64,000 bases of DNA from a virus (taxonomy: Duplodnaviria > Heunggongvirae > Uroviricota > Caudoviricetes): IMG/VR virus record IMGVR_UViG_3300001336_000001, positions 42,836 to 106,835 of that record. One strand, given 5' to 3'. Under the pieces are notes generated by a model. That model saw nothing but the letters and a program-made list of their open reading frames with translations, was not told the origin of the DNA and did no database searches. This document shows positions 28,683 to 28,986 of the stretch, piece after piece. Every line of letters starts with the position of its first letter. Positions within the stretch are counted from its first letter, which is position 1. A program made the translations under genes and the position numbers.

Positions 28683-28718
28683 GACAATAAAAAAACCCGA
28701 TTCTTTTGAAATCGGGTT
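28683..28718 (-). terminator. rho-independent terminator (hairpin AACCCGATT/AATCGGGTT followed by a T-run on the minus strand)
   Basis: Read directly from the sequence. It ends the micro-ORF transcript. Confidence 0.55.
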
Positions 28719-28744
28719 TGAAATATCGTTTGTTGTTTATTTTA

Positions 28745-28855
28745 TCAAATAGTAACTAAATCACTACTCACAACATGATATGACACACCCGTCACACTAG
28801 GTTTTCCACCTTGCGTTTGTTTCGGTTGATAATATGTCATTCCTGTTGTTTTCAT
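28745..28855 (-). CDS. micro-ORF (36 aa, MKTTGMTYYQPKQTQGGKPSVTGVSYHVVSSDLVTI) between a promoter and a terminator
   Basis: ATG at 28855, stop at 28745-28747. The upstream promoter and leader are duplicated at 53567..53733. Confidence 0.3.
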   Translation of the reverse strand: MKTTGMTYYQPKQTQGGKPSVTGVSYHVVSSDLVTI

Positions 28856-28884
28856 TTTTTATTCGTTTATTAATTAAATATATG

Positions 28885-28915
28885 CAAATATACAAAAAGT
28901 TTTTTATATGTGCAA
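28885..28915 (-). promoter_or_regulatory. Bacteroidetes-type promoter (TTGCAC-N17-TATATTTG)
   Basis: Reverse complement of caaatata(28885-28892) and gtgcaa(28910-28915). Part of an 80-bp repeat shared with 53680..53760. Confidence 0.5.
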
Positions 28916-28986
28916 GTTTTTTTTATTTTTTTTCAGAAAGGCATTATTTACATCCAAATTGCTTTTTTTGTTAATTTGCTGAAACC

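Follow-up and report, generated by a model that had tools for sequence, protein, structure and literature searches.

The two promoter, micro-ORF and terminator cassettes that adjoin the tRNA arrays of this phage are very probably multivalent ribosome-mediated transcription attenuators controlling the downstream arrays, a mechanism that we infer from the DNA itself. Each cassette lies on the minus strand of the window, i.e., the whole 64,000-nt stretch analysed here, and is composed of a Bacteroidota-type promoter, a conserved AU-rich leader, an ORF of 33 or 36 codons and an intrinsic terminator (Table 1). This reading builds on what is directly observed: the anatomy of the cassettes, the correspondence between the codons of each ORF and the tRNAs of its array, the conservation and covariation of this correspondence from phage to phage, and the position and specificity of the antiterminator. 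Among the options raised in an earlier note on this DNA, that of leader-peptide attenuators is strongly supported by the codon-array match, the cassette-specific antiterminator, the conserved classes that were forecast correctly and the replication in a Lak-like phage. Nothing specific was found to favour the options of small regulatory RNAs or peptides, or of processed primers.

Table 1. Features of the two cassettes and of the tRNA arrays in the window.
Feature	Position	Strand	Description
Array 1 (regulated under the proposal)	27463..28622	-	tRNA-Pro(tgg), Gln(ttg), Tyr(gta), Thr(tgt), Gly(tcc), Gly(gcc), Lys(ttt) x2, Lys(ctt)
Cassette 1 intrinsic terminator	28719-28689	-	11 pairs, 7 U, dG -13.3; hairpin 28719-28693, U-tract to 28689
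Cassette 1 segment 3	28727-28707	-	common to predicted antiterminator and terminator
Leader ORF 1	28745..28855	-	MKTTGMTYYQPKQTQGGKPSVTGVSYHVVSSDLVTI + stop, 36 aa
Cassette 1 segment 2 (predicted antiterminator 5' strand)	28777..28796	-	ORF codons 20-26; core CGGGU 28791-28787 pairs with ACCCG 28717-28713
Leader 1 regulatory codons 2-19	28799..28852	-	AAA ACA ACA GGA ATG ACA TAT TAT CAA CCG AAA CAA ACG CAA GGT GGA AAA CCT
Cassette 1 conserved AU-rich 5' leader	28856..28884	-	CATATATTTAATTAATAAACGAATAAAAA, reaching ATG
Cassette 1 promoter (predicted)	28885..28936	-	A-rich tract 28936-28916, -33 TTG 28915-28913, -7 TATATTTG 28892-28885
tRNA-Gln(ctg) + tRNA-Met(cat)	28995..29148	-	directly upstream of cassette 1; same array, ahead of the candidate attenuator
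Array 2 (regulated under the proposal)	51292..53319	-	tRNA-Asn, His, Trp, Ser(tga), Ile(gat), Met/Ile2(cat), Arg(acg), Arg(tct), 177-aa ORF, Ser(gct)
Array 2, doubtful tRNA call	52450-52530		after Ile(gat)
Array 2, unassigned tRNA	52950-53025		after Trp
59-aa ORF	53310..53489	-	conserved; between cassette 2 terminator and tRNA-Asn; co-regulated under the proposal
Cassette 2 intrinsic terminator	53538-53502	-	11 pairs, 9 U, dG -14.2; hairpin 53538-53509, U-tract to 53502
Cassette 2 segment 3	53546-53529	-	common to predicted antiterminator and terminator
Leader ORF 2	53567..53668	-	MRTINIHMISISNWRRNSHQYETTMSVNFFDDF + stop, 33 aa
Cassette 2 segment 2 (predicted antiterminator 5' strand)	53587..53605	-	ORF codons 22-28; core GAGACG 53605-53600 pairs with CGUCUC 53534-53529
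Leader 2 regulatory codons 2-19	53612..53665	-	AGA ACA ATT AAC ATA CAT ATG ATT TCG ATT TCG AAT TGG AGA CGC AAT AGT CAC
Cassette 2 conserved 5' leader	53669..53701	-	from alignment with cassette 1
Cassette 2 promoter (predicted)	53702..53753	-	A-rich tract, -33 TTG 53733-53731, -7 TATATTTG 53709-53702

The two cassettes share an 81-nt repeat (28856-28936 and 53673-53753) that is 85% identical in an alignment of the minus-strand copies and stops at the ATG. It contains a 28-mer, GTATATTTGCATATATTTAATTAATAAA, which is identical in both copies and has no other site in the window at up to three mismatches, with 0 expected by chance. The earlier note had placed the repeat at 28855..28935 and 53680..53760; its existence and the first copy are confirmed, and the second copy is offset by about 7 nt. 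Both cassettes carry the Bacteroidota -33/-7 pattern (TTG and TAnnTTTG about 19-21 nt apart) and are predicted promoters on that basis, the spacer from TTG to TATATTTG being 20 in cassette 1 and 21 in cassette 2; in the window, the pattern has 29 matches on the minus (coding) strand versus 6 on the plus strand. The cassette promoter can also be read as TTGACA-N18-TATATT, which scores 11/12 in a sigma-70 scan and accounts for the N17/18 spacing of the strong promoter proposed earlier: the promoter pattern holds, the Bacteroidota-type spacing is 20 or 21, and N18 applies under the sigma-70 reading only. A T9SS Por_Secre_tail protein is also encoded in the window and supports the assignment of a Bacteroidota host. 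Transcription presumably starts a few nucleotides past the -7 box, and this box and the first 12 transcribed nucleotides are identical across all cassette classes in relatives. The leader described as conserved ahead of the ATG is present in both cassettes, and the start codons lie 29-33 nt past the -7 box, which places a short ORF between promoter and array in each case.

The two ORFs have exactly the coordinates originally claimed for them. The accompanying statement that they are unrelated beyond a common M(K/R)T(T/I) start does not hold, as each mirrors its own array; they look unrelated because each lists the codons read by the tRNAs downstream of it. Leader 1 encodes only Lys, Thr, Gly, Met, Tyr, Gln and Pro at codons 2-19, with a single Met among codons 4-19, and leader 2 only Ile, Asn, His, Met, Ser, Trp and Arg at codons 4-19, which is the content of array 2. 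For a background frequency of 0.31, codons 4-19 fall within the amino-acid set of the adjoining array in 15/16 cases for leader 1 (p=2.5e-7) and 16/16 for leader 2 (p=8.7e-9), compared to 0-2/16 for the sets of other arrays. In the same composition test, the tail codons of the leader ORFs show no enrichment for own-array amino acids. The N-terminal motif M-[KR]-T-x-x-N-I is common to several leader classes whatever their array.

The correspondence extends to individual isoacceptors. A cognate or wobble codon is present in leader 2 for 9/9 of the ARAGORN-called tRNAs of array 2, different isoacceptors having their own codons (AGA and CGC; TCG and AGT), and the GGT and GGA codons of leader 1 match Gly(gcc), a tRNA called under relaxed settings only, and Gly(tcc) of array 1. 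Codon 3 of leader 2 (ACA, Thr) is without a matching tRNA in array 2, and leader 1 of the window contains no AAG codon for Lys(ctt) of array 1. Several leader codons are rare in the phage, namely TCG (4% of Ser codons) and CGC (2% of Arg codons) in leader 2, and CCG (5%), ACG (8%) and GGA in leader 1; TCG, CGC, CCG and ACG are conserved in leaders.

Relatives of the window phage were found by searching at the DNA level for patterns of the common promoter and leader, and by way of a neighbouring 81-aa protein; tblastn of both leader peptides against the phage collection returned nothing. A megablast search of 50,697 phage records with both array regions gave tRNA-sized matches only, so that no close cultured relative is recognised. 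Promoter, ORF, terminator and array are kept together at the same positions in >20 related contigs. Leader 1 has an orthologue in L013 and related loci that is 71% identical with in-frame indels; leader ORF 1 is also annotated as a gene on a Logan contig. Orthologues of leader 2 are found in L001 (two copies), L002, L005, L006, L008-L012 and L032. In the orthologous leaders, start and stop codons are always retained, indels are in frame, substitutions remain within the array amino-acid set (I>N, M>R, I>M, M>T), and a Ser codon switches between TCG and AGT, a change of three bases.

Scanning the relatives for the shared promoter and leader revealed two further peptide classes, M[RK]TLTNIFDFAFFAAE.. 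and MKTINNILVLNLCLLLVV.., from which Phe/Asp/Ala/Glu and Leu/Val/Cys arrays, respectively, were forecast ahead of the tRNA search. The forecast held, ARAGORN calling Phe, Glu, His, Asp and Ala in the former arrays and Cys, Val, Leu and Leu in the latter; the tRNA called His in the F/D/A/E arrays has no His codon in the leader. The cassette rule recurs in LR756504.1, a complete, published Lak-like megaphage of 636 kb without annotation, where the same architecture is associated with a different shared promoter motif. A generic scanner detects seven leaders in this genome whose composition tracks each array (best p=4.6e-8), and the tRNA groups, {L,S,C}, {A,E,G,I,V}, {F,H}, {I,M,N,R,T} and {K,Q,Y}, differ from those of the window. 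ATA codons occur where the array includes tRNA-Ile(tat); where genes for both isoacceptors are present, the leader alternates between TTA and CTA, and between AGT and TCG. Applied to crAss001 and to the T5 tRNA region, which serve as controls, the same scanner finds no leader tracking downstream tRNAs (best p 0.04-0.14). The first tRNA lies 8 nt past the U-tract in the L/V/C class and 7-10 nt past it in 4/7 Lak-like cassettes, gaps that would leave no room for another promoter.

Both cassettes had been described as sitting at the upstream edge of a tRNA array. Adjacency to the arrays is borne out, but not the exact edge, since two array 1 tRNAs, tRNA-Gln(ctg) (29148-29076) and tRNA-Met (29070-28995), precede cassette 1, and the 59-aa ORF separates cassette 2 from tRNA-Asn. 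This ORF (53489-53310) starts 13 nt past the cassette 2 U-tract and has no Pfam or PHROG match; a downstream ORF is absent from 3/4 cassette classes. A scan of the window reveals no further match to the -33/-7 promoter pattern inside either array. The 66-nt gap from the cassette 1 terminator to tRNA-Pro contains a sigma-70-like TTGACA-16-TAGAGT (28645-28618), which was rejected as an internal tRNA-Pro promoter on account of its second hexamer lying inside the tRNA. The window also encodes tRNA-repair functions, namely two RNA ligases, a CCA-adding enzyme and RlaP.

The intrinsic terminators expected after each ORF, at 28683..28718 and 53500..53538, were recovered as a hairpin and U-tract at 28719-28689 and 53538-53502. 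For the full-length leaders of both window cassettes, ribosome-mask MFE folding yields the terminator fold at every stall position, and the switch must therefore be kinetic, as in classical attenuators. Equilibrium folding, in which the terminator always wins, was accordingly rejected as a switch model for these cassettes and replaced by a co-transcriptional model in which the transcript is truncated before the terminator 3' arm and a ribosome mask is applied. In this model, the terminator 5' arm is paired (6-9 nt) with ORF codons ~20-26 as long as the ribosome stalls at codons <=16-18, and is free when it stalls further on, in all classes and in the Lak-like cassettes.

The complementarity between ORF and terminator is specific to each cassette. 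Summed over own partners, it amounts to -174.9 kcal/mol versus -124.1±9.1 for swapped partners, the own-partner value being reached by 0/20,000 permutations (p<=5e-5) when the terminator arm plus loop is used. Taken one by one, the shuffle tests of antiterminator strength are modest (p 0.002-0.5), and the F/D/A/E class failed its test with a narrowly defined arm. The cassette 2 antiterminator ranks 1 of 13 against swapped terminators. That of cassette 1 is the weakest (-9.1 kcal/mol, shuffle p≈0.09); as ACCCG arms are common to several classes, its rank against swapped arms is 10 of 13. Whole-helix replacements preserve complementarity (GAGACG:CGUCUC, UUGAGUC:GACUCAG, GGUCAAGG:CCUUGACC, GGUGGUCGG:CCGACCAC), and the cassette 2 terminator hairpin varies in sequence among relatives with its structure maintained. 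A MAFFT alignment of cassette 2 homologues is unusable for column-wise covariation, as the antiterminator register shifts between subgroups. An Rfam scan of the cassettes finds no family at the gathering threshold; sub-threshold matches include Trp_leader RF00513 (19.9 bits vs 41, at 28687-28800) and PyrG_leader RF02371 (23.7 bits vs 65, at 53502-53577). T-box RF00230, with its stem I specifier loop and T-box sequence, has no match in the cassettes even at E<=1-10.

Altogether, these findings lead to a model in which a strong host-type (Bacteroidota) promoter would start a short transcript comprising an AU-rich unstructured leader and the 33-36-codon ORF, whose codons 2-19 would act as a roll-call of the codons decoded by the adjoining downstream tRNAs. 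The ORF is presumed to be translated and its translation to be coupled to transcription in the host. If the aminoacyl-tRNAs are all plentiful, the ribosome would track RNA polymerase across codons ~20-26 and mask segment 2, in which case the terminator hairpin would form and transcription would end ahead of the tRNA genes. If any array tRNA is scarce or uncharged, the ribosome would stall within codons 2-17 and leave segment 2 free to pair with the emerging terminator 5' arm, allowing the polymerase to read through into the array; in cassette 2, read-through would transcribe the 59-aa ORF first and then array 2. Possible triggers include the degradation of host tRNAs, their cleavage by anticodon-nuclease defences, or a demand from late genes that outstrips them. 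As the operon product, tRNA, is the quantity sensed, the predicted response is negative feedback, or on-demand supply, exerted separately on each tRNA group.

It is very unlikely that the micro-ORFs are ordinary small phage proteins, for example for early host takeover, expressed from their own promoter-terminator units and resembling the arrays by coincidence or as a by-product of codon usage. Relatives do retain the ORFs in frame, public data list one of them as a gene, and phages have many small early genes with strong promoters. Yet each leader fits its own array and none of the others in that phage; the two further classes, forecast in advance, and the seven Lak leaders follow the rule; and the C-terminal halves vary freely while remaining complementary to the local terminator. 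Leader codons are, moreover, rare in the real genes of the phage, and arrays beginning 7-10 nt past the U-tract would be without a promoter. The codon-structured variation of the leaders (in-frame indels, TCG<>AGT, array-set substitutions, start and stop always kept) also makes it highly improbable that the short terminated transcripts are themselves the functional product, as small RNAs or trans-acting 'codon sponges', with the appearance of an ORF being incidental. In other bacteria, RNAs derived from attenuators can have trans activity, as reported for rnTrpL (PMC6614838), and Rfam gives a weak match, below threshold, to the Bacteroides sRNA family BTnc231 (20 bits vs 80); however, no RNA family reaches threshold, and a small-RNA product leaves unexplained why composition follows the array.

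Another view accepts that the leaders sense array tRNAs through ribosome speed and places the output elsewhere, in precursor processing or stability (RNase access), Rho-type polarity, or translation of the 59-aa ORF. The composition match is silent on the output step, the terminator is always favoured at equilibrium and cassette 2 does have a downstream ORF; we nonetheless consider such an output unlikely, given that 3/4 classes are without a downstream ORF and that every cassette has a hairpin and U-tract, with a complement in segment 2 at the same codons covarying with the terminator arm, which is the signature of terminator/antiterminator control. Finally, the two copies could reflect a strong promoter duplicated and spread by recombination, the ORF and terminator being passengers unlinked to tRNA expression. 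The repeat does stop at the ATG and the window holds many similar -33/-7 promoters, but promoter, ORF, terminator and array are conserved together in >20 related contigs, and the Lak-like phage repeats the architecture behind a different shared promoter motif, so that this explanation is barely credible.

The cassettes, read as attenuators, can be compared with several known systems. Amino-acid operons are controlled by leader-peptide attenuators that are multivalent in ilvGMEDA/ilvBN (Ile, Leu, Val codons) and thr (Thr, Ile), and are also found in trp, his, leu and pheA. The phage cassettes share with them a short ORF rich in regulatory codons, mutually exclusive 2:3 antiterminator and 3:4 terminator and, under the model, read-through favoured by stalling and the sensing of more than one amino acid per leader. 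Unlike these operons, which encode biosynthetic enzymes and use runs of 1-3 amino acids, the proposed phage targets are tRNA genes whose product would itself be read by the ribosome, and a leader samples 6-9 tRNA species, isoacceptors included. The phage system is also viral, divides the code among several cassettes, and shows no sequence similarity to the bacterial attenuators (Trp_leader 19.9 vs 41 bits). In E. coli, pheST, with its pheM leader, is an aminoacyl-tRNA synthetase operon under leader-peptide attenuation that responds to the cognate charged tRNA; it resembles the cassettes in regulating a component of the translation apparatus, but its target is a synthetase, it senses one amino acid and it is bacterial. 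The idea that the E. coli tRNA genes pheU/pheV have leader peptides was rejected, with only ~105 nt upstream and no leader ORF. T-box riboswitches use a specifier codon and the T-box loop to bind uncharged tRNA directly, independently of the ribosome and with one tRNA per element. They likewise sense the supply of specific tRNAs and switch between terminator and antiterminator upstream of translation-related genes, but the cassettes have no T-box match and no evident ORF-independent structure. The arrays resemble the tRNA clusters of T4, T5 and crAss001 in being mixed with small ORFs, promoters and terminators; unlike them, the T5 and crAss001 clusters are, according to the scanner, without a leader tracking downstream tRNAs. 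Neither such a control nor an earlier description of it for tRNA genes was found in the literature searched. In the Cys-responsive leaderless short ORF attenuators of mycobacteria (bioRxiv 10.1101/834739), the codon content of a small upstream ORF likewise ties downstream expression to the supply of one amino acid or tRNA; they respond to a single amino acid, control metabolic genes and use another output mechanism.

The tRNAs carried by phages are currently explained by compensation for codon usage and by escape from host defences that target tRNAs. The architecture described here implies a closed loop of tRNA supply, in which the ribosome gauges decoding speed on a test peptide made of the codons served by the array, and means that simple reporters could put the idea of on-demand resupply to a direct test. 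Classical attenuation would gain a new class of targets, as well as leaders that sense up to nine tRNA species at once; if true, this would be the first attenuation system with tRNA as the regulated product and a natural modular sensor of tRNA availability, which for synthetic biology would offer compact, re-programmable sensors of individual tRNA pools. The architecture also provides a rule for annotation, in which a small ORF is followed by a terminator and a composition-matched array; this rule already finds the system in a 636-kb megaphage. The attenuator reading fits the tRNA-repair genes of the same window, and the proposed leader-array regulons would explain the grouping of tRNA genes in these genomes. 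More generally, it appears reasonably probable that large Bacteroidota phages, including the window's lineage and Lak-like megaphages, split the genetic code into tRNA regulons, each placed behind a multivalent leader that lists its own tRNAs by isoacceptor, with the ribosome as the sensor, such that tRNAs would be made only when their decoding slows.

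Both cassettes lie in a phage-like stretch (~30% GC) in which the minus strand carries all genes and ARAGORN and Rfam place two tRNA arrays. The repeat that an earlier note had claimed beside them is borne out at 85% identity; its copies share an exact 28-mer, for which the chance expectation is 0, and their similarity ends at the ATG. It comprises an A-rich tract, a Bacteroidota-type promoter (TTG-N20/21-TATATTTG, a pattern found 29 times on the coding strand vs 6 on the opposite strand) and an AU-rich 5′ leader, behind which come a leader ORF (leader 1 or 2) and an intrinsic terminator. 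Cassette 1 is located inside array 1, where tRNA-Gln(ctg) and tRNA-Met precede it as exceptions in placement and Pro, Gln, Tyr, Thr, Gly, Gly and three Lys tRNAs follow. Behind cassette 2 come a 59-aa ORF and, after it, tRNAs for Asn, His, Trp, Ser, Ile, Met, Arg, Arg and Ser. This conserved ORF (starting MNELVRTLGTVKVSDF) has no Pfam or PHROG family, is invariably found 3′ of the terminator of N/H/W/S/I/M/R-class cassettes and is duplicated as one with the cassette in the related locus L001. Between the cassette-1 terminator and tRNA-Pro, a block kept in relatives (GTTCATTGACATATTGGGTAATTAA; ~3528-3552 in L013) resembles a sigma-70 site, yet runs into the tRNA-Pro start, and may be a processing signal.

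Coordinates of the cassettes, tRNA arrays and neighbouring features in the window
Feature	Coordinates	Strand	Remark
Repeat, two copies	28856-28936; 53673-53753		
Leader ORF 1	28855-28745	-	36 codons
Leader ORF 2	53668-53567	-	33 codons
Terminator, cassette 1	28719-28689	-	
Terminator, cassette 2	53538-53502	-	
Core pairing, cassette 1	28791-28787 with 28717-28713		CGGGU with ACCCG; extends 28796-28777 with 28727-28707
Core pairing, cassette 2	53605-53600 with 53534-53529		GAGACG with CGUCUC; extends to 53587 with 53546
Array 1	29148-27463		
Array 2	53319-51292		
59-aa ORF	53310-53489	-	
GTTCATTGACATATTGGGTAATTAA block	28652-28628	-	
Lys(ctt), Gln(ttg), His, Ile tRNAs	27463-27553; 28407-28490; 53159-53242; 52641-52727	-	91, 84, 84, 87 nt
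Extra tRNA-like genes	27904-27976; 52950-53025		second, ambiguous anticodon
Non-coding stretch	29149-29652	-	~500 nt
Promoter upstream of it	29683-29653		Bacteroidota-type
TnpB / IS605 OrfB-like gene	29868-31049	-	
GIY-YIG/T5orf172-like small ORF	50825-51217	-	
177-aa ORF	51432-51965	-	
Paralogous pair	53785-54765; 54810-55919	-	repeats D15, D17
Third ORF	55931-56266	-	
RNA/tRNA repair or turnover genes	18329-19879; 37829-39016; 42920-43957; 45957-47075; 56305-57447	-	
Repeats D1, D2, D5, D8-D13	2.6-4.2, 13.7-17.4, 39.9-41.0 kb		

In both leaders (MKTTGMTYYQPKQTQGGKP followed by SVTGVSYHVVSSDLVTI; MRTINIHMISISNWRRNSH followed by QYETTMSVNFFDDF), nearly all amino acids encoded by codons 1-19 are those of the adjoining array's tRNAs. 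Against the 67 long ORFs of the window as background, codons 4-19 fall within the own-array set in 15/16 cases for leader 1 (p=2.5e-7), the sole exception being Met, whose tRNA sits just upstream, and in 16/16 for leader 2 (p=8.7e-9); matches to the other array's set number 0-2/16, and the same test finds no enrichment in the leader tails. Leader 2 contains isoacceptor codons AGA and CGC (Arg-tct, Arg-acg) and TCG and AGT (Ser-tga, Ser-gct), as well as ATT, ATA/ATG, AAT/AAC, CAT/CAC and TGG, and thus samples every ARAGORN tRNA of array 2. Leader 1 has both GGA and GGT; under relaxed search settings, tRNA-Gly(gcc) is found next to Gly(tcc). Because several leader codons are scarce in the phage's own genes (TCG, 4% of Ser; CGC, 2% of Arg; CCG, 5% of Pro; ACG, 8% of Thr), the sequences point to selection on codons, not on the peptide. 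In leader 2, codon 3 (ACA) does not follow the array, nor does the common N-terminus M-[KR]-T-x-x-N-I; both probably reflect a common initiation module or ancestry. Four tRNAs have ARAGORN lengths unusual for their type, and two extra tRNA-like genes are called by Rfam or relaxed settings only.

No close relative was found among deposited phages. Exact-pattern scans with the common -7 box and leader retrieved more than 20 contigs of viral or metagenomic origin along with two mis-binned MAG contigs, and cassette-1 orthologues were reached by synteny via a neighbouring protein. Both cassettes are kept as entire units at the same positions in relatives, and orthologous leaders bear a coding signature (in-frame indels, Ser TCG<>AGT switches), with substitutions in the regulatory part (I>N, M>R, I>M, M>T) never leaving the set of amino acids that the array serves. 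Two further peptide classes, M[RK]TLTNIFDFAFFAAE[AE]DE... and MKTINN[IK]LVLNLCLLLVV..., lie behind the same promoter and leader, and from their sequences Phe/Asp/Ala/Glu and Leu/Val/Cys arrays were forecast before any tRNA search. ARAGORN then returned Phe, Glu, His, Asp, Ala and Cys, Val, Leu, Leu; the forecast tRNAs are precisely those absent from the window, and the four cassettes jointly cover all twenty amino acids in its lineage. The F/D/A/E leader has no codon for the tRNA called His in its arrays. A related viral contig, L003, carries a tmRNA (7176-7546, minus strand; tag peptide ENFLNTASVEVVEGEVALA).

A generic scanner (ORF of 15-45 codons, hairpin and T-run, array within 700 nt, binomial test on codons 4-19) retrieves both window cassettes and, in the complete 636-kb Lak-like megaphage LR756504.1, seven leaders with differently grouped arrays: MTTIIRNMNNNINRTRTT.. 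before Thr, Asn, Thr, Arg (4.6e-8); MKTIAMIIRMRIIR.. before Arg, Ile, Met; MKAMILSLCLSLSLSL.. before Leu, Leu, Ser, Cys, Ser, Ser, Leu, Leu (2.7e-7); MKTKKQQYKQYQPQYK.. before Tyr, Tyr, Gln, Lys x4; MKTVNTNIAIVEIAVIGGAEEG.. before Glu, Ala, Ile(tat), Val, Gly, Glu; ..FWHFHF.. before His, Phe; and ..KQDKQYQPQYD.. directly before Asp. Between the two independent lineages, a tRNA relocated to a different array has its codons relocated to that array's leader and, on this comparison, leader and array covary. The scanner found no such leader in crAss001 or the T5 tRNA region. In LR756504.1 (L056-L068), a conserved motif close to ATATATACGTTATAATA, which may be a phage-specific promoter, replaces the -33/-7 promoter upstream of 5/7 cassettes (e.g., upstream of 135606, 222598, 309669 and 401993).

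Equilibrium folds of the full-length window leaders prefer the terminator. In a co-transcriptional model, in which the transcript stops before the terminator 3′ arm and the ribosome masks up to 12 nt beyond the A-site codon, the terminator 5′ arm is predicted to pair with ORF codons ~20-26 as long as the ribosome occupies codons ≤16-18, and to be unpaired once the ribosome has advanced past them. The model gives this dependence on ribosome position for each of the four classes and for Lak, and the boundary between "sensing-competent" and "masking" positions falls where the block of array-cognate codons stops. The cassette-1 antiterminator is short. Complementarity between ORF and terminator is specific to the own partner: summed over 13 distinct cassettes, duplex energy amounts to -174.9 kcal/mol with own partners vs -124.1±9.1 with swapped ones, and 0/20,000 permutations attained the own-partner sum. 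Replaced terminator sequences are accompanied by altered peptide codons 20-24, as in the two L001 copies, where TRSG (CUAGGUCUGG) became TGQG (GGUCAAGG) alongside the terminator change. In the L/V/C class and 4/7 Lak cassettes, a gap of 7-10 nt separates the U-tract from the first tRNA, so these arrays are probably transcribed by read-through only; the window's arrays contain no additional -33/-7 promoter.

On this evidence we infer, going beyond sequence anatomy, that each cassette works as a multivalent ribosome-mediated attenuator. When the leader is decoded smoothly, transcription would terminate; slow decoding by any one tRNA of the set would cause antitermination, so that the set is made.

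A Bacteroidota host is suggested by the type of promoter and by a T9SS Por_Secre_tail protein, and at the protein level the nearest relatives are Lak-like megaphages. Other genes of the window specify an RNB-domain exoribonuclease, an RlaP nucleotidyltransferase, two RNA ligases and a CCA-adding enzyme; speculatively, this tRNA and RNA repair toolkit fits selection by host attacks on tRNA. Between a promoter and tRNA-Gln(ctg), the non-coding stretch matches no Rfam family and is possibly an unrecognized structured RNA: its nt 264-433 are ~79% conserved upstream of Lys/Met tRNAs in L013-type relatives, and nt 59-170 show 84-86% identity to Lak megaphages LR756501 and LR756503. Directly upstream of array 1 lies the TnpB-like gene (HTH_OrfB_IS605, OrfB_IS605 and Cas12f1-like TNB domains); in or beside array 2, the GIY-YIG-like and 177-aa ORFs split tRNA-Ser(gct) from the remainder. 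Two paralogous neighbours share the N-terminus MRRFDKIKNIRKANLL.EQRYL, which the start of a third ORF resembles, and several direct-repeat families (D1, D2, D5, D8-D13) mark paralogous small genes with a common upstream motif (TATATATAAATATTCA).

The cassettes match no Rfam leader family or T-box; T-box elements sense tRNA without a ribosome, unlike the mechanism proposed for the phage cassettes. The same logic operates in the classical multivalent ilv and thr attenuators and, applied to a translation component, in the pheST attenuator; no such leader precedes the tRNA-Phe genes of E. coli. The full-text literature, as far as covered, yielded no account of tRNA genes or phage tRNA arrays being controlled by a leader peptide. 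The proposed mechanism itself is familiar; what would be new is that its target is tRNA genes, hence that the thing sensed is the product, together with the roll-call design of the leader and the splitting of the code into regulons.
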